Source of the DNA: Candidatus Methylomirabilis oxygeniifera
GTDB lineage: Bacteria > Methylomirabilota > Methylomirabilia > Methylomirabilales > Methylomirabilaceae
Length of the DNA: 32,000 nt
Direction: 5' to 3'
NCBI GenBank assembly: GCA_000091165.1
Contig: FP565575.1
Coordinates: 1-32,000, forward strand
The position numbers and the translations under genes were made by a program. Shown one piece after another: positions 10,827-30,248 of this stretch. The notes under the pieces are model-generated. The model was given only the letters and a program-made list of their open reading frames with translations, did no database searches and was not told where the DNA came from. Position 1 is the stretch's first letter, and every line of letters begins with the position of its first letter.

Positions 10827-12521
10827 ATGAGTCTTCCGTCGCTGGCTGTCATCCTGCTGGTGGGGATCGCGGTCGGGTATCGGCTGTACAGTCGGTTTGT
10901 GGCCAGACAGTACGGCTTGGACGATACACACCTCACCCCGGCGTGCGAGATGAATGACGGGGTGGATTATGTGCCGACGAAGCCCTTCTACCTGCTGGGC
11001 CAGCACTTCAGCGCCATCGCTGCCGCAGGTCCTATTGCCGGCCCGATTATGGCCGCCCAGATATTCGGGTGGCTTCCCTGTCTGCTCTGGATCGGTCTGG
11101 GGACTATCTTCATCGGGGCGGTCCATGACTTCTCCAGCCTGGCGGCGTCGGTCAAGCACCGTGCCCGGTCGATCGCCGAGATCGTCCGTCTCTACCTGGG
11201 ACAGCGTGGCTGGCTCGCCATGATGCTCTTTATCTGGCTTGCCCTGATCTACGTGATCGTGGCCTTTACCGACATCACGGCGAGCACCTTCGTGGGCAAG
11301 ACGGAAGAGTTTGAGGGGGAGACCTTCGCATTCAACCCTGGTGGGGCCGTGGCCGCCGCCAGCACGATGTACCTGCTCCTGGCCGTCCTCATGGGATTGA
11401 TCCAGAGGCGGTTCGACCCGCCGCTCTGGCTCCAGACGATCATCTTCGTCCCGGCAACCTTAGGCGTCGTCTGGTTCGGCACAAAGATCTCGACGCTCCT
11501 CATCCTGGATGTAAAGATGTGGGGGGTCCTGATCCTGGCCTACTGCTTTGCGGCCTCTCTTTTGCCGATGTGGCTGCTCCTCCAGCCGAGGGGGTACCTC
11601 GGTGGATTTATCCTCTACCTGACCCTCTTTGTCGGCCTCATCGGAATCTTCTTCGGCGGGTTTCAAGTCGAGCAGGAGAGCTTCAAGACCTGGCGCGCGC
11701 CGGGAATGACCGGCGCGCTGTTCCCGTTTCTCTTTGTCACCATCGCCTGCGGGGCCTGTTCCGGATTCCATGGCCTGGTCTGTTCCGGAACGACGTCAAA
11801 ACAGATCGAGAAGGAGAGCCACTGCCGGCCAGTGGGGTACGGCGCCATGCTGCTGGAAGGGTTCGTAGCCTTTATCGCGCTGGCGACCGTCATGATCGTG
11901 GCCCAACCCCAGCTCCAGGGAATGGCGCCCGGTAAGATTTATGGGGACGGGATTGGCAGGTTTCTTGCGATCCTCATCGGGCCGGAACACCTTCGATTCG
12001 CAATGACCTTCGGGGCCATGGCCTTTTCCACCTTTGTCTTTGACACGCTGGATGTCAGCACCCGTCTGAGCCGCTACATCATTCAAGAGCTGTTCAACTG
12101 GTCGGGGAAGAAGGGGGCGATGCTGGCGACCGCACTCACGATAGCGCTTCCCCTCTTTCTCATCATGAGATCGGGCGAAGGCGCGTATCGACTCTTTTGG
12201 ACCCTCTTCGGGACCGGCAATCAACTCCTGGCGGCCCTGACCCTGTTGGGGATTACGGTCTGGCTCAAGAGGTCGGCTCGACCGACCTGGTTCGCCCTGT
12301 TCCCGATGCTCTTCGTTATGACCATGACGATCTGGTCCCTGGTCATCCAGGCGCGGGAGGCCTATGCAGTCATTCTGCAAGAGGGTATCGTCCTAAACAC
12401 GACGATCTTGAATGGGGTTGTCAGTGTGAGCCTGCTGTGTCTCGCGGCTATTCTGATCATTGAGGCGTTGCGAGCCCTCGCCCAACCGGTGATGTCTACC
12501 GTCAAGGCCCCCACTACCTGA
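10827..12521 (+). CDS. cstA: Carbon starvation protein CstA (peptide/pyruvate transporter family)
   Basis: 564-aa polytopic membrane protein. The N-terminal region ...PTKPFYLLGQHFSAIAAAGPIAGPI... is characteristic of CstA. GAAGGAA RBS. Confidence 0.9.
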   Translation: MSLPSLAVILLVGIAVGYRLYSRFVARQYGLDDTHLTPACEMNDGVDYVPTKPFYLLGQHFSAIAAAGPIAGPIMAAQIFGWLPCLLWIGLGTIFIGAVHDFSSLAASVKHRARSIAEIVRLYLGQRGWLAMMLFIWLALIYVIVAFTDITASTFVGKTEEFEGETFAFNPGGAVAAASTMYLLLAVLMGLIQRRFDPPLWLQTIIFVPATLGVVWFGTKISTLLILDVKMWGVLILAYCFAASLLPMWLLLQPRGYLGGFILYLTLFVGLIGIFFGGFQVEQESFKTWRAPGMTGALFPFLFVTIACGACSGFHGLVCSGTTSKQIEKESHCRPVGYGAMLLEGFVAFIALATVMIVAQPQLQGMAPGKIYGDGIGRFLAILIGPEHLRFAMTFGAMAFSTFVFDTLDVSTRLSRYIIQELFNWSGKKGAMLATALTIALPLFLIMRSGEGAYRLFWTLFGTGNQLLAALTLLGITVWLKRSARPTWFALFPMLFVMTMTIWSLVIQAREAYAVILQEGIVLNTTILNGVVSVSLLCLAAILIIEALRALAQPVMSTVKAPTT

Positions 12522-12534
12522 CATGAGGGAGCGA

Positions 12535-17700: not shown

Positions 17701-19629
17701 GTGTACGCCCGTCATGGGCATGTGCTTATGGGGTGGAGGTCCCCTGTGGGAGAACCACCGTCAAGGTATGTGACGTCAACCACCAGCTTAAGGCAAGGGC
17801 AGTCCCGCGAGAGGCTGTCCGAAGGAAGCCGGCGGCAAAGCTGCGAGCCGAGGAACACGAACGCCATAGAAGGCCGACATCCCCGGGGCGAGTCAGCACA
17901 ACATGACAAAGCCCTGTGGTTCGGGGGACACGGTAAATGGCGCGGTTGTGCAGCCATAGTGCATGTCCTTATCCGGGGAGATCTGCTCGGCGTGCGGCCC
18001 GTGGTCGCCAGGGGAGCCGGACTGAGGCCCAGCCCGAAAGGGCTGGATACGCCACCGGACCCTACCGCGGCCCGGGCAGCGCGTACCGGAGTAATCCGGG
18101 ACGTAATCGGGCAGAAGTCAGCAGAGGCCATAGTAGGCGGGACGGCCGCAGCGGTCCGATCGCCCAAGGGCCGAACACGATGGCGCAAGGAGGAGCCGTG
18201 AGCCGCTCGGAGGAGACGTCGAACCCGTCCGGGGGAGTCTGCCACCGGCGCGGCCCCACGCAGCCAGCCTTGCACGACCACCTCATGGAGCGGGTGCTGG
18301 ACCGTGCGAACCTGCAACGGGCGTGGAAACAAGTCCAAGCCAACCGAGGTGCCCCGGGCATCGACGGCATGACGGTAGACGAGTTCCCCACCTTTGCCCG
18401 TGCGCACTGGGCCGATATCCGCCAAGCCCTGTTCGATGGCGTCTATCAGCCTTCTCCCGCACGGCGGGTGTTCATCCCTAAGCCCGGTGGTCGTGGTCAG
18501 CGTCCGCTGGGCATCCCCATCGTCCTGGATCGGCTGATCTGTCAAGCCATTCAGCAGGTCCTCACGCCGATCTTCGACCCGCACTTCTCGGAGTCGAGCT
18601 TCGGCTTCCGGCCTCGTCGCGCTGCCCACGGAGCCCTCAGGCAGGTAACGCGCGTCCTCCGGGAAGGCCGCCGCATGGCCGTGGATCTTGATCTGGCTCA
18701 GTTTTTCGACCAGGTCTCCCACGACGTGCTGATCGTCCGATTGAGCCGCAGGGTGTCCGATAGGCGCCTGCTGGCTTTGATCGGCCGCTACCTGCGGGCG
18801 GGCGTCCTGGCCGGGGAGGTCATTCAGGCAACCGAACTCGGGACCCCACAAGGGTCTCCGCTTTCGCCGTTGCTCGGCAACATCCTGTTGGACGACCTCG
18901 ACAAGGAACTGGAACGACGCCGGCTGCGTTTTGCCCGTTACGCTGATGATCTGCTCATCGTGGTCAACAGCGTGCGGGCCGGCCTGCGCGTCAAGGCCAG
19001 CCTCACCCGGTACCTGACCCGCCGGTTGAAACTGGTCGTCAATGAAGCCAAGAGCCGCGTGTGTCCCATCCGCGAGTGCACCTTCCTCGGGTTCACCTTT
19101 CGAGGGAGCAAACTCCGCTGGTCGGACGAGGCCTTCGCAGACTTCCAATACCGGGTCCGTCAACTGACCGGTCGCAGTTGGGGGGTCTCGATGTCCTACC
19201 GGCTCCGCCGACTTGCCCAGTACCTGAGAGGCTGGATGAACTACTTTGGCATCTCGGAGTATTACCGGCCCGTGCCGGAAATCGACCACTGGATTCGACG
19301 GCGTCTCCGTATGTGCTATTGGAAACAGTGGCGCTGGGCGCGAACCAAGGTGCGTCACCTTCTGGCCTTGGGGACCAGCCGGAGTCATGCGATCCTGACC
19401 GCCATTAGTCGGAAAAGCTACTGGCATCTGTCCAAGACCCTGGCAACCCAGACCGGCATGACCAATCAGTGGCTTGCCAGCCAGGGGCTTCTCTCGGTCC
19501 GTGCCCTGTGGATCAAGGCCCATGGCTACGCCTGAGGTTTCGTGTGCTCCACCGTCGTGAACCGCCCGGTGCGGACCCGCATGCCGGGTGGTGTGGGGGC
19601 TGGGGGTTAAAAACCCCCGGCTACCCGAT
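17701..19629 (+). mobile_element. Bacterial group II intron (about 1.93 kb) with an intron-encoded RT/maturase; the 5' boundary is tentative
   Basis: The 5' end GTGTACGCCCGTCATGGGC resembles GUGYG plus the first DI hairpin. Domain V is at 19561-19592, with a 2-nt bulge and a 4-nt loop. Domain VI is at 19596-19626 with bulged A 19623, 6 nt before the 3' end ...CUACCCGAU. The RT ORF sits in domain IV. Confidence 0.75.
18180..19535 (+). CDS. Group II intron reverse transcriptase/maturase (no En/HNH domain evident)
   Basis: RT blocks RRVFIPKPGGRGQRPLGIPIVLDRLICQA, DLDLAQFFDQVSHD, GTPQGSPLSPLLGNILLDDLD and RYADDLLIVV (YADD). C-terminal X/maturase region LRGWMNYFGISEYY. ATG 18180 is preferred over the tracked 17937. 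Confidence 0.9.
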   Translation: MAQGGAVSRSEETSNPSGGVCHRRGPTQPALHDHLMERVLDRANLQRAWKQVQANRGAPGIDGMTVDEFPTFARAHWADIRQALFDGVYQPSPARRVFIPKPGGRGQRPLGIPIVLDRLICQAIQQVLTPIFDPHFSESSFGFRPRRAAHGALRQVTRVLREGRRMAVDLDLAQFFDQVSHDVLIVRLSRRVSDRRLLALIGRYLRAGVLAGEVIQATELGTPQGSPLSPLLGNILLDDLDKELERRRLRFARYADDLLIVVNSVRAGLRVKASLTRYLTRRLKLVVNEAKSRVCPIRECTFLGFTFRGSKLRWSDEAFADFQYRVRQLTGRSWGVSMSYRLRRLAQYLRGWMNYFGISEYYRPVPEIDHWIRRRLRMCYWKQWRWARTKVRHLLALGTSRSHAILTAISRKSYWHLSKTLATQTGMTNQWLASQGLLSVRALWIKAHGYA

Positions 19630-20535: not shown

Positions 20536-21894
20536 CTAACTTGCCTCAGACGGCACGGGACAGGTAACTTGTAGGCCGAATGAGCGTGCGCGTGTGATGA
20601 GCGAGTGGATCTGCCGTTGGCGGTAGCGCTCCTCAGCGGACGCGGCCGAAGCGCGAATGTAGGCGGCACCCTTGGTGAGCATGGTCCAAACGATACGGGT
20701 GAGTTTATGGGCGGTGGTGGTGATCGCCACGGGTTTGCCAGCCCGGGCGGCGATCCGCCAACAGAACGCCCCCAACGCCGTCTCCGTGCGGCCCGCCGCC
20801 TGAGCGGCAAGCCTGAGGGCTTTCGACACCCGATTGGCACACGACCGCGTCCTGCGCCGGAGCACCTTCCCCCCCGAGATGTCGTGGGCGGGGCACAGGC
20901 CCAACCACGACGCGAACCGGCCCGGCGTTTCGAATCGGTCGATGTTCAATCCCACCTCCGCCATGATGATGCTCGCGGTGCTGTCGCTGATCCCATCGAT
21001 CTCCGTCAAATCCACCTCGCTCGTCTGTTTCCAGGACGCCACAATGTCGACCGTGTAGTCGGATTTGCTCTTCCGGCGGGGGGTCCGCTCCCCATCATCG
21101 GCATGTCCTGCCTGCGCCGAGCTCGGACGGGCGTCGACCGCACGTTTGATCGCCGCCTCAGTCTCGCCAATCAGACGCTGGTAGGTGTCCCAGAGTGTCA
21201 CCGCGTGGGAGAGGGCCAACAGATGCTCGGATCGCCACGTGCCCACCAGGGCCCGTCCGAAGGTGTCCGCATCGTATTTGCAGCGGCGATCTCGGAACTC
21301 GACCAGCGTCTGTGGACTCCGCTCTCCGGACAGGATCGCCCGGATGATCCCCATCCCGGTCTTGCCCGTGATGTCGGCCACTACCTCCGTCAGACGGACG
21401 TTCATCTGGATCATCGCCTTCTGCATCAACTGGACTTGGCGCGCCGCCGCATCGATCAGCTCCTGTCGTTGCCGGACCAGCGACCGCACCCGACATGCCT
21501 GGTCGTCCGGTCGGAAGGACGCCCGTAACAAGCCAAACGCATGCAGCTCCTGGAGCCACTGGCAATCCTTCAGGTCCGACTTGCGGCCCGGAACCGATTT
21601 CAACTCGCGCGGATTCACCAGACACACCTCGACCCCGGCCGACGCGAGCACATCGTACAGTGGAATCCAATAGACCCCCGTCGATTCCATTGCGACCGTC
21701 GTAATCCGCTCGGCACGGAGCCACTCCCGGATCGCCTCCAGATCGTCTGTAAACATCCCGAATCGACGGACCGTTTCGCCTTCACGGTCCGCCGGTATCG
21801 CCACCCACATCATCTCTCGTGACCCCACGTCGATGCCCGCGCTGTCGGGGTGGATGATTTCCCAGTGCCTACGCAAACGGTTCTTTCCGGCCAT
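20536..21894 (-). CDS. IS110-family transposase (DEDD RuvC-like plus Tnp domain recombinase)
   Basis: 452 aa. N-terminal AGIDVGS and VAMESTGVYWIPLYDVL. C-terminal IDGISDSTASIIMAEVG...FASWLGLCPAHDISGGK. Confidence 0.9.
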   Translation of the reverse strand: MAGKNRLRRHWEIIHPDSAGIDVGSREMMWVAIPADREGETVRRFGMFTDDLEAIREWLRAERITTVAMESTGVYWIPLYDVLASAGVEVCLVNPRELKSVPGRKSDLKDCQWLQELHAFGLLRASFRPDDQACRVRSLVRQRQELIDAAARQVQLMQKAMIQMNVRLTEVVADITGKTGMGIIRAILSGERSPQTLVEFRDRRCKYDADTFGRALVGTWRSEHLLALSHAVTLWDTYQRLIGETEAAIKRAVDARPSSAQAGHADDGERTPRRKSKSDYTVDIVASWKQTSEVDLTEIDGISDSTASIIMAEVGLNIDRFETPGRFASWLGLCPAHDISGGKVLRRRTRSCANRVSKALRLAAQAAGRTETALGAFCWRIAARAGKPVAITTTAHKLTRIVWTMLTKGAAYIRASAASAEERYRQRQIHSLITRARSFGLQVTCPVPSEAS

Positions 21895-22256
21895 ACATCC
21901 TCCTCGGCTTCTGTTTGATCAAAACGCCGTAGGCGATGCTCGATGCTAATTCTTCCAAGCGAGGTCGGCCACCCGGCCGCCATCAGTGATCCATCCTGCC
22001 ATCGCCCAGGTCATGCTAACGAACGGGCTCGAAGGCACCATTGCTGCTCCGACCTCTCCGGCGTCCATCACCCGCACCAGCATCATTGTGCCACAGTTAG
22101 TCGTTTTTCCATCGCGCGGCCCGCGGGTGGGGGCTAACTATTGAGTGAACCGCTCAGGCTCTGAGATAGACTGCGCAGTCTATTCAATCCCAGTTCGTAA
22201 GGCTTCCTGCGGAAAACACCTGCAATATACACTACTTGGGCTTGTGTTTGTCAACT
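21895..22256 (-). ncRNA. Candidate IS110 bridge/seek RNA region (non-coding left end)
   Basis: A 362-nt ORF-free stretch lies directly upstream of the IS110 recombinase. This is the arrangement of the IS110 subgroup, where the guide ncRNA is 5' of the ORF. It contains a perfect 18-nt palindrome ATAGACTGCGCAGTCTAT (22166-22183). The structure was not modelled. Confidence 0.3.
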
Positions 22257-22360
22257 TGATTTGGCCCACTTTGATCATCTGATTTGGCCCACCCTGTGAG
22301 ACAACACAGGGTGTTGTGCTCGCCGTGGTCGTCCCGCTCGTGTGTGTGTGGTGTCTGCGT

Positions 22361-23131
22361 CTACGCCCCTTTCGCTCGCCGCTGTCTGGCCAGCGTCCGT
22401 CGGAATCGATAGGATTCCGTTCCGGTCTCGATGATGTGCGCCTGGTCGGTGAGCCGATCGATCATGGCTTTGCATAACCGCGCATTGGGAAACATCGTCG
22501 TCCACTCGGAAAACGGCAGGTTCGTGGTGACAATGACCGCGGCCCGTTCCGCCCGCCCCGCGATCACCTGAAACAATACTTCCCCGGCGGTCTCCGGCAT
22601 CGTCACGTACGCCATTTCATCCACCACGAGCACCTCGTAGCGCATCCAGCGCGCCAACACCCGACTCAACTCGTTTTGGTGGCGCGCCTCCATCAACTCG
22701 TTCACCAACTCGGCCGCCGTCGTGAACCGTACGCGCTTCCGCTGCCGGCAGGCGACGACGGCCAGCGCGATCGCCAGGTGCGTCTTGCCGGTCCCGGCGT
22801 CGCCGAGGAAAAGCACGGGTTCCGCCCGCCCGATCCAGTCGCCGGTGCCGAGTGTGCGGACTACTGACGCCGAGACCTGCGGGGCCATCGTGAAGTCGAA
22901 GTCCTCGAGGGTCTTGACCTTGGGCAACCGCGCCTCCTTGATCCGGCGCGCCACGACGTTCCGCTCCCGTTCTTCGACCTCCGCCTCCAATAAGGCCTCC
23001 AAGTATGCCAGGTGGCTCTGGTGCGCCTTTGCCGCGTGTTCTGCCTGTCGCCCGCACTGACCCGCGACGGTCGGGAGATGTAACTGTCGACACCACTGGG
23101 TGATGGCCGCGACCTCAACAGGGGCGCTCAC
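22361..23131 (-). CDS. istB: IS21-family helper ATPase IstB
   Basis: Walker [15 protein letters not shown] and Walker [10 protein letters not shown]. The GTG start overlaps the istA stop (GTGA). The tracked 292-aa version starts too far upstream. Confidence 0.9.
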
Positions 23132-24699
23132 TGGAGCACCTCTGTCGTGAGCGAGCCCAGCAACCGATCGTACGCGGCCATGCTTGGCAGGGGCCGTTCG
23201 TAGCGCGCCAATCGCCCGATCTCGATCGCCTCCGGGCACGGCCTGACGGACTGGGGCGCCTGGTCCAGCAAGTAGCGGATGGCCGCCACATCGGAGACGC
23301 CGAGTTCGACGGCCTCGTGTACCACCGCCCGTAGCCGCTCATAGCTATGCTGCCGTCCTAGCAGTAAGACCTCGATCATCGCCCGCGTCCCTTGCTGCCG
23401 GCCGTGACGGTGCCGGAGCGTCTCCCAAAATCGATCGAAGCTCTCCGGCCATTTCCCCTGCGCCCGCCATTGGTGTAGGGGCGTCGATCCGGCGAAGGCG
23501 CCTGGCTTCTTCAGGAGGACGTCCAGGTAATGCTCCAGCTCCAGTACCGGCTGCTGTCGTCCAAAACACCGTTCGTGCTGCGCTACCCGTCGCCCGTCGT
23601 ACCAGACCTCCACATAGGCCGCCTGCACCTTGGCCTCCACCCGTGTCCCCACCGGGAGCGGGACCGAGTACCAGTTCGTCCGCACCTTGACACACCCGCT
23701 GCTGTTCACCATCGGAAACGACACCGCGGCTAGGTCGAACCCCTCGTGGGCGAGCGGCAACAGGTGCTCCCGTTCGAGGACCATCGCCGCCCCCACGGTG
23801 TGGGTCCGGCCGGCAATGACCCGCTGTGCGTCCTCCCGGCATCCGGCCACCAGCAGGGCGTTCAGCTGGGCGAGATCGGGGGCCACCGGGAGCGGCACCA
23901 AGTAGTTCCGCCGGAACTGTCCCCCTTCCCCTTCGACGCCGCCCTTCTCGTGGCCTCGTGCGGGATTGCAAAACTCGCTCTCGAACCCCCAATGCGATCG
24001 GAAGGCGACGAACCGCGCCGTCTCTTCCCGCTGACGGCCACGCAGGATCTTCTGCACCGCACTCTTCAGATTATCGTAGCGGAGCTGGTGGAAGACCCCA
24101 CCAAAGTAGGCGAAGGCCTCCTCGTGAGCCTCCAGAAAGGCCTGCTGTGTCGCATGCCGGTAGGCGCGGTGAAACGCCGCGCCGCTGGCCATGCTGCGCA
24201 TACAGAAGATGGCGACCTGTTCCCGTTCGCCCTCCACCTCTGCCCACGCCTCATACCAGTCCACTTGTGCCTCGACGCCCCACGTGTAGCTCTGCGGAAT
24301 GAAGGTATCGCGTGTCACGAGGCTCAGCGCTCCCTTGCGTTGCCGCACGTACCGACGAATGGTCGATTCTCCCACCGGCCACTCCGGCTTCTCCTGGCAC
24401 ACTCGCCGCCAGATCCGATGCGCCGTATGCCGTTGTTTCCGTGGGGCGTGCCGATCCGCTTCCAAGATCTCGTCGATGAAGGCCGCGATCGGTCCCAGCG
24501 TCGGCCGCTGCCGTGTCGCTCGCTTCCGCGCGGGTGGTACCGCGCCGGCTAAGGCCTGCCGTACCATCCGCCGGTGCACCCCGAACGTGCGCGCGACCCC
24601 AGTGATCGTACCCTCTCCATGCTCATATTCCCGTCTCATCTGCTCGAATAGCTCCACCGTTTTTCTCCTCGTGCTCACCCGGCCTCCCTTCCGGGCCAT
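23128..24699 (-). CDS. istA: IS21-family transposase IstA
   Basis: 523 aa. N-terminal [22 protein letters not shown], a DDE catalytic core region, and a typical IstA C-terminus. Confidence 0.9.
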
Positions 24700-25297: not shown

Positions 25298-25576
25298 ATG
25301 ATCGACGAGGAGGCGAAGCAAAAGGCGCTGGCCCGCTTGAGTCGGATCGAGGGCCAGGTGCAGGGCGTACAGCGGATGGTGGAGGAGGGGAAGTACTGCG
25401 TCGATATCCTGCTCCAACTCTCCGCCATCGAGGGCGCGTTGGAACAGGTTCGCAAGATCCTCCTCGGCCGTCATATCGAATCGTGTGTTGCGGAGGCGAT
25501 GGCCGCCGGGCGGGCGGAGGATCGTCAGAAGAAGATCGAAGAGCTTCTGGAGGTCTTCTCGCGTTACGGCCGGTAG
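25298..25576 (+). CDS. csoR: CsoR-family copper-sensing transcriptional repressor
   Basis: 92 aa. DUF156 core RLSRIEGQVQGVQRMVEEGKYCVDILLQLSAI...RHIESC carries the C-H-C Cu(I) ligand pattern. GGAGG sits 5 nt before ATG 25298. Confidence 0.9.
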   Translation: MIDEEAKQKALARLSRIEGQVQGVQRMVEEGKYCVDILLQLSAIEGALEQVRKILLGRHIESCVAEAMAAGRAEDRQKKIEELLEVFSRYGR

Positions 25577-25749: not shown

Positions 25750-26943
25750 GTGCGATACGACACGATCGTAGTTGGCGGCGGCCCTGCCGGGGCAACGGCG
25801 GCGTTGACGCTGGCAACGGCGGGTGCCAGGGTGCTCCTGCTGGAGCGGCGAAGATTGCCTCGCTATAAGGCGTGCGGTGGCTGCCTATCGCAACGGGTGG
25901 AGCGGCTGCTCCCGTTCGACCATGGTAGGCTGATCGAGGAACGGATCACCGGCCTCACCTTTACGTGGCGCGGTCGTGATCCGATCGAGGCGACCTTCCC
26001 GGAGCCGGTGGCCTTTATGGTCTGGCGCAACACGTTTGATCAGGCCCTATGCAGCCGTGCGGTTGACGCCGGAGTTGAGCTGCAGGACGGACAGACAGTC
26101 CGGGCTGTCAAAGCATCAGCGAATTATATCGAGGTCGATCTTGAAGGCAGAACCGTGACCGCTGATTTCCTGGTTGGGGCTGATGGAGCCTGCGGCGTTG
26201 TTGCCAGGGATCTGTTTCCGGATCGCGCGCAGCCTGGTCTCGTGGCGCTGGATGCGGAGCTTCCCTTGACGAGTACGGGAGAGGCCAAACTGAAAGACCG
26301 GGTTATCCTCGATGTGGGTCAGGCGCCGGGAGGGTATGGCTGGGCTTTTCCGAAGGGCGGGGTAGCCTCTGTCGGCGTGGCGGTCGACCGCAGAGCGGCG
26401 AAGCGAGTCCAGTCGTGTCTGACGGCCTTCCTGAACTCGAGTGGGTTCGGTGACCGTAACGCGATGCGGACCACCGGTGCGCTGATTCCAATCCATTGCG
26501 GCGGGAACCGCTCGCTTCATCGCGGACGTGCGCTTCTTACAGGCGATGCGGCACGCCTGGTCGATCCCTTTCTGGGAGAAGGGATCTACTACGCCATCCA
26601 GAGCGGACAACACGCGGCGCAGACCATTCTGACAGACGGGAGCCGCAACGGTGATCTTTCGTCATATCAGGCGGCGGTGTCGAGGACGATCATCCCGGAG
26701 CTCGAGGCGGCCGGTCGGCTAAGCCGGGCGGCCCACCGGGCTCCGTGGCTGTGGTTTCAGGTGCTCAAGCGGCGTCGTGCGGTGATCGATCTGTACAGGA
26801 AGGTCTTGATGGGTGAAGCGAGTTACCGATGGTTCGAGGATCGGGTCTGGGCAGGGACGCCTCGTTCCATCGTCATGCTGTTTGGTCTCTGGGCTGGTCG
26901 AGGAGCGCTCAGCGACAGGCGCCAAAGTGCAGAAAGCTGGTAA
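25750..26943 (+). CDS. FAD-dependent oxidoreductase, geranylgeranyl reductase family
   Basis: 397 aa. N-terminal dinucleotide fold [31 protein letters not shown] followed by KACGG, and a later [18 protein letters not shown] motif. Confidence 0.8.
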
Positions 26944-29591
26944 TGGCCAGAGATCCGATCTGCGGCATGGATGTGCTCCCCGAGGAGGCCGCAGGTACGA
27001 GCCGCTACGAGGGGGTAGATTACTATTTCTGTGCGACGGCCTGTAAGGAGGCGTTCGACAAGTCGCCAGCGCAGTATGTGACTGGGCAGCCCGAGGTACA
27101 AAACAGGAAGTCCGAAATACCCTCCACCCTCCGCGTTACCGAGCTTCCGATCAGAGGAATGACCTGCGCGTCCTGTGTGGCTCGGATCGAGGACGGCCTG
27201 TCGAAGCTCAGTGGTGTCCAGACGGCCGGCGTCAACTTTGCGACGCAACAGGCGACGATCTCATATGATTCCCAACGGGTGACCATCCATCGAATCGTCC
27301 AGGAGGTTCGGGAGCTGGGGTATGAGGTCGCGACGGCAGAGGTCATCTTGCCGGTTAGCGGGATGTCCTGCGCCTCGTGCGTGCAGCATATCGAGCAGGC
27401 GTTGGCGGCGGTCCCGGGGGTGGTTGCCGCCTCTGTGAACTTTGCTACGGAGCGGGCGAGCGTGACTTTCCTTGCCTCAGTCGTTCAGCCGACGGATCTG
27501 CGTCAGGCGATCGAAGAGGCCGGGTACGGGGTTGCGGACGTGGCAGCCGGCGTCATGCCTGATCAAGAGCAGGCGACGGCCGATACGGAGATCCGCCTGC
27601 TTCGGACCAAGTTTCTGGTCGGAGCGGCCCTCAGCGTCCCCGTCCTGGTGGGGAGCTTTCCGGACTGGTTTCCCTGGGCCCCGGCGCTGCTCTCCGACCC
27701 CTACATGTTGTTGGTCCTCACCACGCCGGTACAGTTCTGGGTCGGCCGGCAGTTCCATCGGGGGTTCTGGGCGAGCCTGAAACACCGAACCGCCGACATG
27801 AATACCTTAGTCTCGATCGGGACGAATGCAGCCTACCTGTACAGTGCGGCGCTCACCCTCTTCCCGGCGTCCATCGCACCGTCAGGGATGGAGATGATGA
27901 CCTACTACGACACCGCCGCCATTTTGATGACTCTGATCGTGATGGGAAGGTGGCTCGAGGCTAAGGCGAAAGGTCGGACCTCGGAGGCCATCAGGAAGCT
28001 GATGGGACTTCGGGCCAAGACCGCCCGGGTGATCCGGGACGACTTAGTGCAAGATATCCCGGTGGAGGAGGTCAGGATCGGCGACCTGGTGCTCGTCAGG
28101 CCCGGGGAGAAGGTGCCGGTCGACGGAATCATCCGTGAGGGGCAGTCGGCGTTGGATGAGTCGATGCTGACCGGGGAGAGCCTGCCCGTCGAGAAGGGGC
28201 CGGGCGATCAGGTGATCGGCGCGACGGTCAATAAGATTGGCGGCTTCACGTTCGAGGCGACCCGGGTCGGGCGGGACACCGTCCTCGCCCAGATCGTCCG
28301 GCTGGTGGAGCAGGCCCAGGGATCGAAGGCGCCAATCCAGCGGCTGGTCGATCGGATTGCCGGAATCTTTGTCCCGATCGTTTTAGTGATTGCCGTCGTC
28401 ACGTTCGGGGTATGGTTACTGGTCGGAGGGGAACAGGCGTTTCTTGTTGCCCTCTCCAACTTCGTGGCCGTCCTGGTGATCGCCTGCCCCTGCGCGTTAG
28501 GTCTGGCGACGCCCACGTCGATCATGGTCGGCATCGGGAAGGGGGCGGAGTACGGCGTCCTGATCAAGAACGCCGAGAGTCTTGAACGGGCCTACCGGGT
28601 GAACGTCATTGTGTTCGACAAGACCGGTACGCTGACCGTCGGCCAACCATCCGTCACCGACATCATTCCGAGCTCAACACTCAACACTCAACACTCCACG
28701 CCTGACATTCTTCTTAGGCTGGCTGCCTCGGCGGAACAAGGCTCGGAGCACCCGCTTGGGCAGGCCATCATCGACTACGCCAAGGCGCAAGGGCTTGCGC
28801 TTGCCAGGCCGCAGGAGTTCAAAGCGGCCCCGGGACACGGGATCAGGGCCGTTGTAGAGGGACGGGAGGTCCTGCTTGGTAATGTTGTCCTGATGCGGCA
28901 GCACGGCATCGACCTTGCCGGAATGGACGCCCAGGCAGAGTCGTTATCGGGGGAGGGGAAGACGCCGATGTTTGTCGCTGCCGATGGGCGGCTGTTTGGG
29001 ATCATCGCCGTGGCCGACGTCGTCAAGCCGCATTCGAAGGCGGCCGTGACCGCCTTGCATGGCTTGGGCATCGAGGTGGCAATGATCACCGGTGATACCC
29101 GTCGGACGGCCGAGGCCATTGCCGGACAGGTCGGGATCGATCGAGTTCTGGCGGAGGTCCTGCCGGAGCATAAGGCCCTGGAGGTCCGACGACTTCAGGA
29201 GCAGGGGAGGTTGGTGGCGATGGTAGGCGACGGGATCAACGATGCCCCTGCCCTGGCCCAGGCCGATGTCGGGGTCGCCATCGGTACCGGGACCGATGTA
29301 GCGATGGAGGCGGCCGATATTACCCTGATCGGTGGCGATCTGCGAAGCGTCGTGACGGCCCTCCAGCTCAGCAGGTTGACGATGCGCAACATCAGACAGA
29401 ACCTGTTTTGGGCGTTTGCCTATAATACGGTCTTGATTCCGGTAGCCGCCGGGGTCCTCTACCCATTGTTTGGGGTCATGTTAAGTCCGGTCCTGGCCAG
29501 CGCAGCTATGGCGCTATCCTCGGTGACTGTCGTCAGCAATGCCCTCCGATTGCGGAGATTCCGACCGATGGGCGTCGCCGTATCGGCATAG
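26943..29591 (+). CDS. copA: Copper-translocating P1B-type ATPase with an N-terminal TRASH/YHS domain and two HMA domains
   Basis: The ATG overlaps the upstream stop (TAATG). TRASH domain DPICGMDV...[15 protein letters not shown] motifs GMTCASCV and GMSCASCV. Also CPC ([11 protein letters not shown]), DKTGTLT, SEHPL and GDGINDAP. The tracked 920-aa version starts inside the upstream gene. Confidence 0.93.
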
Positions 29592-29669: not shown

Positions 29670-30089
29670 ATGGAGCAAGATGCAGTAAAAAAGACTGATC
29701 GGCGACTGGTTCTCAGGGTTCTTGCTGGAGGCGCGTTAAGCCTTCTCGTTGCGCCTGTTGCCGGTTGGACAGCGGGAGGCGATAGTGCGGCTCAGGCGAT
29801 CCCGAGGCGGCCGCGCCCGGCGACGCCCTCTCCGGCACTGTTCCGTGGAAAGCTGGCTGAGACCTATCGGATCGCGAAGGAGGCGCCGGAACTGATCGAG
29901 CAGATGCCGTGTTATTGCGGGTGCGGGAGAATGGCCGGCCATCAGAACAACCTGGATTGCTATACGGATCGGCACGCGGACACGTGAGTGATGTGCCAAG
30001 ACATTACGCTGGATGCGTATGCCATGTACAAGCAAGGAAAGAAAATTCCGGAGATCAAGGCGGTAATTGACCGAAAATATGCGAGATGA
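29670..30089 (+). CDS. PCYCGC-motif protein with a Tat-like signal, interrupted by an in-frame TGA at 29985-29987 (candidate Sec codon, or a pseudogene)
   Basis: RRLVLRVLAGG signal and the MPCYCGCG motif. After TGA the same frame reads VMCQDITLDAYAMYKQGKKIPEIKAVIDRKYAR, then TGA at 30087-30089. This gives T-[TGA]-V-M-C. Confidence 0.55.
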
Positions 30090-30101
30090 GAGGGGAGAGC
30101 T

Positions 30102-30248
30102 ATGGCGATAGATCCCGTGTGCAAGATGACGGTAGACGAAAAACAGGCGGCGGCGACAGCCGTGCATCAGGGGGTGACCTACTATTTTTGCGCCGTAGGC
30201 TGCAAGCGCGCCTTCGAACAGTCGCCGGAGAAATACCTGTCGAAATAA
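30102..30248 (+). CDS. YHS/TRASH-domain metal-binding mini-protein (48 aa)
   Basis: Not in the ORF track. Sequence: MAIDPVCKMTVDEKQAAATAVHQGVTYYFCAVGCKRAFEQSPEKYLSK. GAGGGGAG RBS. It parallels the copA N-terminus. Confidence 0.75.
   Translation: MAIDPVCKMTVDEKQAAATAVHQGVTYYFCAVGCKRAFEQSPEKYLSK

Follow-up and report, generated by a model that had tools for sequence, protein, structure and literature searches.

The 32,000-nucleotide stretch analysed here (the window) covers positions 1 to 32,000 of contig FP565575.1 from Candidatus Methylomirabilis oxygeniifera (GenBank assembly GCA_000091165.1). Positions 29670-30089 of its forward strand very probably constitute one gene for a 139-residue selenoprotein, in which the in-frame UGA at 29985-29987 is read through as selenocysteine (Sec); the prediction rests on comparison with homologous sequences. 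A preliminary description of this DNA had proposed that a PCYCGC-motif protein split by a TGA might be a selenoprotein. That proposal is supported by the pairing of Sec with Cys among relatives, by coding constraint past the TGA and by a hairpin that covaries. The gene is a member of the already catalogued selenoprotein family NF041379, 'CYCXC family (seleno)protein' (OS_HP4), and because the family was catalogued before, the selenoprotein claim is right but is no discovery. What is added here is modest and consists of a corrected 139-aa gene model, a core Sec insertion sequence (SECIS) at 30005-30019, and a neighbourhood of copper and thiol-redox genes. Knowledge of selenocysteine decoding itself is unchanged.

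Gene model and conservation across the UGA

The gene starts at ATG 29670 downstream of a ribosome-binding stretch (GAGAGGGGG) and runs for 105 codons to the TGA at 29985-29987. The same frame then stays open for 33 further codons (VMCQDITLDAYAMYKQGKKIPEIKAVIDRKYAR) and closes at the TGA at 30087-30089. A Shine-Dalgarno-like run (GAGGGGAG, 30090-30097) follows directly, and the next gene begins at ATG 30102. This arrangement, with an open reading frame (ORF) that stops at a TGA and a 33-codon continuation ahead of the ribosome-binding site and start of the following gene, is found in the sequence just as the preliminary description had laid it out. The residues across the predicted Sec106 read ...HADT-U-VMCQDITLDAYAMYK. 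The local motif T-U-V-M-C (residues 105-109) is a UxxC motif whose partner, Cys109, is encoded at 29994-29996, and the PCYCGC motif occupies residues 80-85 (29907-29924). The main features of the gene are:

29670-30089, forward strand: full coding sequence of the predicted CYCXC/PCYCGC-family selenoprotein, 139 codons plus stop, with Sec as codon 106.
29910-29924, forward strand: C-Y-C-G-C motif (Cys81, Cys83 and Cys85), the family signature, with columns that are invariant in homolog alignments.
29985-29987, forward strand: predicted UGA selenocysteine codon, residue 106 and position 1 of UxxC; the aligned codon is TGA, TGC or TGT only, and the Cys column is invariant in full-length homologs.
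30087-30089, forward strand: true stop TGA of the selenoprotein gene; orthologs finish at or near this point, 33-44 codons past the Sec codon, with TAA, TAG or TGA.

TGA is also an ordinary stop codon in this genome, as had been pointed out from the cstA gene. This gene (10827-12521) terminates at TGA and the next one starts two bases on, at 12523, so TGA is not recoded throughout the genome. When the window was scanned for another gene interrupted by a TGA, which would be indirect proof of Sec decoding, nothing convincing turned up.

The profile matches place the read-through product firmly in its family. With U written as C, it scores 119.6 bits (E = 4.5e-35, cutoff 90) against the NCBIfam equivalog NF041379, and residues 50-137 align with model positions 2-89 of 90. 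The match to PF13798 (PCYCGC; gathering threshold 25 bits) extends over profile positions 53-141 of 153 with a score of 59.6 bits, compared with positions 53-95 of 153 and 45.7 bits for the 105-aa product. The better fit of the longer product had been anticipated from the usual length of the family, and because the PF13798 match lengthens with read-through, the PCYCGC domain continues across the TGA. Parts of two reviews (PMC9312934; PMC13188914) include CYCXC/OS_HP4 among the prokaryotic selenoprotein families, with UxxC as its motif and PF13798 as its domain, and both credit it to a study of Olavius symbionts. The name OS_HP4 was not found in the main text of the cited 2007 paper, where the table has OS_HP1-3 only. 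The same parts of the reviews assign the family no function, and they make no mention of a copper or cuproenzyme-assembly neighbourhood, of the probable export signal or of SECIS covariation in the family.

When a 5.8-billion-protein collection was searched at the protein level with the read-through product, over 100 close relatives were found that are 105-116 aa long and align with only ~76% of the query. These truncated proteins end in ...DRHADT, ...DRHAFG or ...DRHAVT, exactly at the window TGA and one residue before the Cys column. The full-length relatives are few (P0040, P0041, P0053, P0060 and P0062) and read ...DRHGET-C-DMC..., with a Cys in the TGA column and an invariant second Cys. 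Many independent gene calls that are cut at one column, together with a Cys in that column in the rest, form the classical signature of a Sec/Cys pair.

The same pattern is found at the DNA level, where 17 loci from named genomes, 80 metagenome loci and 4 contigs with the identical protein (101 loci) were compared along with the window, for a total of 103 gene copies. The codon aligned with the window TGA is TGA in 75 copies, TGC in 25 and TGT in 3, and nothing else occurs. TAA and TAG never appear at this position, though the true stops of these genes use all three stop codons, and the U/C-x-x-C motif is present without exception. The preliminary description had named a Cys opposite the TGA in homologs, and TGC or TGT in orthologs, as marks by which a Sec codon could be recognized. 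Both are present: the full-length relatives read HGET-C-DMC, and 28 of the 103 gene copies carry one of the two Cys codons while all others have TGA. The TGA-bearing (Sec-form) genes comprise 55 distinct sequences from metagenome-assembled genomes (MAGs) labelled Methylomirabilota, Tectomicrobia, Nitrospinaceae, Deltaproteobacteria and Anaerolineae.

The segment past the TGA behaves as coding sequence. All Sec-form genes keep x-x-C-Q/x-D-I-T-L-[DE]-A-Y... within a total of 33-44 codons, and the conserved protein block reads xxCQDITL[DE]AYAMYKQGK. Natural termination of the homologs at the TGA, which had been put forward as an observation that would speak for a true stop, is thus not what is seen, as these 33-44 codons are conserved as protein. 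Across 54 distinct Sec-form sequences, codons 15-32 after the TGA show a mean pairwise variation of 0.32/0.30/0.57 at codon positions 1/2/3, which is similar to the pattern in the upstream domain (0.19/0.22/0.50). In-frame stops downstream of the TGA are absent from all 54, while the other two frames contain stops in 26/54 and 39/54. The excess of third-position variation and the lack of in-frame stops argue that the segment is translated in frame with the upstream part.

A hairpin downstream of the UGA

The preliminary description had also reported a hairpin at 30001-30027 composed of two stacked stems. Its coordinates, its 22-nt spacing from the UGA and its upper 5-bp stem, which covaries, all stand. 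The lower ACAU/AUGU stem, which lacks covariation, is not supported. The two elements are:

30005-30019, forward strand: bacterial SECIS core, predicted from covariation and RNAalifold, with a 5-bp stem UACGC/GCGUA and apical loop UGGAU (30010-30014).
30001-30027, forward strand: extended hairpin with lower stem ACAU (30001-30004)/AUGU (30024-30027) interrupted by a bulge of 4 nt; the lower stem is tentative and lacks support.

The upper stem pairs UACGC (30005-30009) with GCGUA (30015-30019), so that the stem begins 17 nt and the loop 22 nt after the UGA. It was compared across 46 distinct 48-nt Sec-form segments (alignment A2), in which columns 21-25/31-35 correspond to window positions 30005-30009/30015-30019. 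RNAalifold, unaided, predicts exactly this 5-bp stem at columns 21-25/31-35 with a 5-nt loop, and the stem is paired in 97% of cells. Compensatory changes occur at two of its pairs: 22-34 varies between A-U (36), G-C (4) and U-A (2), and 21-35 varies between U-A (40) and C-G (3). These changes come with coupled amino-acid changes from T...Y to S...R, A...H or A...R. A nine-pair structure is 92.8% paired, which falls to 5-11% when the 3' partner is slid by one column. In the 25 Cys-form genes, which served as a negative control, these nine stem-pair columns are only 44% paired.

Three sequences that appear to break the stem are of the Anaerolineae type and form a 6-bp stem of their own one register over (AUCACG-CGNGA-CGUGAU). 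Within this subfamily the hairpin is restricted to TGA-bearing members (AUCACG-CGNGA-CGUGAU versus AUCACCCAGGACGCGAUG). Of the 46 distinct sequences, 43 have a UGGAN loop, and the three register-shifted ones have CGUGA or CGGGA. Across the hairpin codons, variation at third positions is down to 0.24 (54 distinct Sec-form sequences), which is what an RNA constraint overlying the coding constraint predicts.

One review (PMC13188914) describes bacterial SECIS elements (bSECIS) as having (i-iii) an apical loop of 3-9 nt on an upper stem of 4-16 bp, a G in the first two loop positions and a UGA-loop distance of 16-37 nt, and (iv) a minimum free energy (MFE) of -7.5 kcal/mol or lower. In the window hairpin, a loop of 5 nt caps a stem of 5 bp, the second and third loop nucleotides are G, and the spacing is 22 nt. 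Comparison with a bacterial SECIS model, by which the hairpin had been proposed to be judged, therefore comes out in its favour for loop, stem, G position and spacing, with a stem that covaries.

Several observations weigh against a SECIS function. The isolated hairpin 30001-30027 folds with only -6.0 to -6.2 kcal/mol, which is above the -7.5 threshold; with the upper stem enforced, the 61 nt of 29985-30045 reach -11.9 kcal/mol, and the energy thus depends on the stretch that is folded. Taken alone, 29985-30045 folds with z = -1.3, and the hairpin is not statistically notable. The MFE fold in the window is a competing, lineage-specific 7-bp hairpin between GUGAUGU (29988-29994) and ACAUUAC (30001-30007). 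Because of this z score and the choice of the competing hairpin, the single-sequence fold is unusable as evidence by itself. The covariation comes from two pairs, with perhaps three independent events. Relatedness among the sequences inflates the shuffle control, and much of the nucleotide conservation is explained by that of the amino acids alone. A search of the window with Rfam at gathering thresholds found no SECIS family match, only a group II intron.

The competing GUGAUGU/ACAUUAC hairpin (29988-30007, forward strand) shares positions with the 5' arm of the SECIS stem. A ribosome standing on the UGA would melt it, and it might modulate the availability of the SECIS beforehand.

The lower stem ACAU/AUGU was considered as an extension of the core. 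It is paired in 87.5% of cells with no compensatory change, its ensemble probability in the window is 0.006, and it was not adopted. An alternative with a bulged U, a feature of the fdhF element, in which 30002-30004 pair with 30019-30021, is 92.2% paired and fits about as well as the lower stem.

Two Sec-form CYCXC paralogs lie in tandem on one contig (L081, at 4193 and 4786; L082, at 754 and 1347). Both have a TGA and a UGCGC/GCGCA hairpin of their own, so the recoding unit was retained in full through the duplication.

Decoding of the UGA

On the model of the established bacterial mechanism, SelB with GTP and Sec-tRNA(Sec) would bind the UGGAU-capped stem-loop at 30005-30019 and deliver Sec at UGA 29985-29987. 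Translation would then continue for 33 more codons to the stop at 30087-30089. If selenium or the insertion machinery were lacking, the gene would be expected to give a 105-residue truncated product. The lineage fits the use of Sec, with support from literature at the phylum level: a Methylomirabilota MAG is reported to carry 63 predicted selenoprotein genes (PMC13188914), and Sec-type hydrogenases have been reported in Methylomirabilota (PMC13582414). A literature search on Methylomirabilis and selenocysteine gave nothing specific on the sel genes of this genome. As a point on the other side, ARAGORN detects no tRNA-Sec within the 32-kb window or in 55 flanks (~10 kb), a result that is uninformative on the whole genome.

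The alternative that survives best, itself quite improbable, is that SelB and the SECIS recode the UGA to Cys instead of Sec by means of a non-canonical tRNA (SelC*, tRNA-ReC), which would make the mature protein a CxxC protein. tRNA-ReC decodes UGA as Cys when a SECIS lies downstream and occurs in ~17% of Sec-type genomes, which sets a general limit on bioinformatic Sec calls (PMC13582414), and the sequence evidence presented here does not separate insertion of Sec from insertion of Cys. However, the same study finds this tRNA concentrated in UXXU-type genomes and in only ~2.3% of other Sec-type genomes, and Methylomirabilota is not among the phyla that it names as carriers (PMC13582414). It would also not be parsimonious to keep a costly UGA and SECIS across several phyla merely to insert Cys, for which TGC suffices.

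If the TGA were instead a genuine stop, the 105-residue product would be functional, and the 33-codon tail would be either a peptide that restarts at the adjacent GTG or ATG or a decaying remnant. The window does have GTG and ATG directly after the TGA, some gene callers list a separate 32-aa ORF, and essentially all public gene calls for Sec-form relatives stop at the TGA. But a start codon at +1 or +2 is found in only 17 of the 55 distinct Sec-form genes, and the GTG/ATG restart is specific to the lineage of the window. In 31 of the 55 no in-frame start occurs before codon +13, past the conserved Cys and the CQDITLDAYA block, and a Shine-Dalgarno-like core precedes the restart in only 2/42. 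A split gene is thus unlikely because the start codon after the TGA is not conserved. The tail is moreover under coding constraint and without stops, both parts form one polypeptide in the Cys-form homologs, and a decaying remnant would keep neither a TGA specifically nor a covarying hairpin. Taken with these observations, a true stop is highly improbable. A sequencing or assembly error, of the kind that a metagenome-assembled record can contain, or a recent nonsense mutation is effectively refuted by the identical 105-aa product on 13 contigs, which come from independent assemblies in NCBI, ENA and Logan, and by the recurrence of TGA at this codon across several phyla (55 distinct sequences).

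Reading of the UGA as Sec has consequences for the public record, in which KAB2961499.1, a hypothetical protein of 105 aa, represents the gene. This entry belongs to contig WBTX01000001.1 of the Candidatus Methylomirabilis oxyfera MAG GCA_009026205.1, which the window matches. The protein collection contains over 100 close Sec-form relatives; essentially all of them are likewise cut at the UGA, and some pipelines call the 32-aa tail as a separate gene (Logan gene calls, L019-L021). Truncation at the UGA is a systematic annotation error for the CYCXC family. Functional or structural inference from the truncated records would be wrong, since the UxxC site and two helices are lacking there. The corrected model adds one more selenoprotein to a phylum that was recently reported to be unusually rich in them.

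Copper neighbourhood and related systems

The gene context and the N-terminus of the protein suggest where it may act. The relevant features are:

25298-25576, forward strand: CsoR/RicR-type metal-sensing repressor (PF02583; RicR model 77 bits, below cutoff), with coordinates taken from L018 5629-5907 at an offset of 19669 to the window.
25750-26943, forward strand: geranylgeranyl-reductase-family protein dependent on flavin adenine dinucleotide (TIGR02032, 230.6 bits, cutoff 158.8), syntenic in the NC10 clade.
26943-29591, forward strand: CopA, a copper-translocating P1B-type ATPase with an N-terminal YHS (YHS/TRASH-like) domain and two HMA domains (TIGR01511, 632 bits, cutoff 397).
29670-29780, forward strand: putative N-terminal export/anchor region of the selenoprotein, predicted at the motif level, with a twin-arginine-like DRRLVLRVL (R11-R12 at 29700-29705) and a hydrophobic stretch.
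30102-30248, forward strand: 48-aa YHS-domain protein, all-Cys (PF04945, 50.5 bits), syntenic in the NC10 clade.

The RR motif and hydrophobic stretch are conserved in the 12 NC10-clade homologs that were compared. Members from other clades have an N-terminal membrane helix preceded by positive charges, and Firmicute members are lipoproteins (PMC13068155). The protein accordingly appears to be extracytoplasmic, either exported or tethered at the outside of the cytoplasmic membrane. Against export by the twin-arginine translocation (Tat) route, residues 1-58 have no NCBIfam match at E <= 1 (TIGR01409) and no Pfam TAT_signal match (PF10518), which leaves the Tat signal without hidden Markov model support. 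Full-length homologs share eight invariant residues (Cys81, Cys83, Cys85, His91, Cys97, His102, Sec/Cys106 and Cys109) that are potential metal ligands. An AlphaFold (AF2) model made on the Cys homolog P0041 has a predicted local distance difference test (pLDDT) score of 88.7, with an N-terminal membrane helix at residues 7-32 and a small all-helical domain.

Gene context in three independent arrangements points to copper. The NC10 clade has a syntenic series of CsoR-type repressor, geranylgeranyl-reductase-family flavoprotein, CopA, PCYCGC gene and YHS gene. An independent Cys-form clade has CsoR, CopA and PCYCGC, and a large Sec-form clade carries SCO1/SenC, Caa3_CtaG, CopD (a weak match), DsbA-like and TlpA/AhpC-like thioredoxins and a cytochrome c. 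The reading favoured here is that the protein is exported or tethered and has a Sec-x-x-Cys site that may bind Cu(I) or be redox-active, alongside CopA and cuproenzyme assembly. Sec106-x-x-Cys109 would most likely be a Cu(I)-binding site or a selenol/thiol redox site, and the selenoprotein could handle copper delivered by the adjacent CopA under the control of the CsoR-type repressor. It is possible, and we put it forward tentatively, that the exported protein is a partner of the CopA efflux pump and of the systems that insert copper into cytochrome oxidase, and that its Sec serves there as a Cu(I) ligand or as a selenol/thiol redox switch.

Some points count against this copper role. It is a case of guilt by association from neighbouring sequences, and the neighbour of one Firmicute member is instead an Fe3+-binding protein (PMC13068155). 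No member of the family has been characterised, and none has a solved structure; there is no PDB relative by sequence, and the P0041 model has no significant Foldseek neighbour in the PDB.

The repeated placement beside CsoR/CopA/YHS or SCO1/CtaG/thioredoxin-like genes gives a concrete hypothesis, open to test, that the family handles copper outside the cytoplasm by means of a Sec ligand. If it is true, this would be the first function for the CYCXC/PCYCGC family, that of an extracytoplasmic copper-handling selenoprotein. Repeated replacement of Cys by Sec in several phyla would in that case reflect selection for copper binding that is tighter or more resistant to oxidation in methanotrophs exposed to nitrite and oxygen, such as Methylomirabilis.

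Two details of the neighbouring genes may be added. The geranylgeranyl-reductase-family flavoprotein is kept between the CsoR-type gene and copA across the NC10 clade, which is unusual for a copper operon. The longest ORF for CopA has 920 aa and extends from ATG 26829, overlapping the upstream flavoprotein gene; the start is likely ATG 26943 instead (882 aa, the public call), which overlaps the upstream stop codon.

Mobile elements lie upstream in the window. A group II intron at 17801-19629 (forward strand) is detected by Rfam models RF02001 (126 bits), RF01998 (59 bits) and RF00029 (46 bits). These matches bracket a 532-aa ORF (17937-19535) that presumably encodes the reverse transcriptase/maturase of the intron. 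Between the intron and the copper operon, two insertion sequences occupy 20536-24699 on the reverse strand, with an IS110-type transposase at 20536-21894 and an IS21-type IstA/IstB pair at 22361-24699. This region varies between strains, as contigs L019-L021 have the IS21 pair without the IS110 element.

The window gene has every defining feature of the CYCXC/OS_HP4 family, including the CYCGC motif, the UxxC Sec motif, the domain length and an end-to-end model match, and differs only in that this copy was deposited truncated, at 105 aa. Its putative SECIS resembles those of E. coli fdhF and fdnG and the bSECISearch consensus in that a stem-loop with a small apical GG loop lies inside the coding region just past the UGA, with a spacing within 16-37 nt. 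Compared with the E. coli fdhF/fdnG elements, the stem is shorter (5 bp), weaker (~ -6 kcal/mol) and without a conserved lower stem, and binding by SelB is putative.

Further likenesses exist to selenoproteins of heavy-metal traffic. In the NF041115 'UxxU metal-binding (seleno)protein' family, the Sec P-type ATPases and the NF041384 'YHS domain (seleno)protein' family, Sec likewise replaces a metal-ligand Cys in a CxxC-type site. Cys-form members of all three are present in this operon: the HMA domains of CopA match NF041115 at 101.6 bits and are all-Cys here, and the 48-aa YHS protein, also all-Cys, weakly resembles NF041384 (17 bits, cutoff 70). The folds and families are unrelated to that of the CYCXC protein, however, and in this operon it alone would use Sec. 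SCO1/SenC, PCuAC, TlpA and CopZ/CusF-type proteins offer a second parallel, as they are small, exported or tethered, rich in Cys and His, and encoded beside copper pumps or cytochrome oxidase assembly genes. The CYCXC protein has no sequence or fold similarity to any of these, and with its small, predicted all-helical domain that lacks a PDB neighbour, it resembles them in context only.

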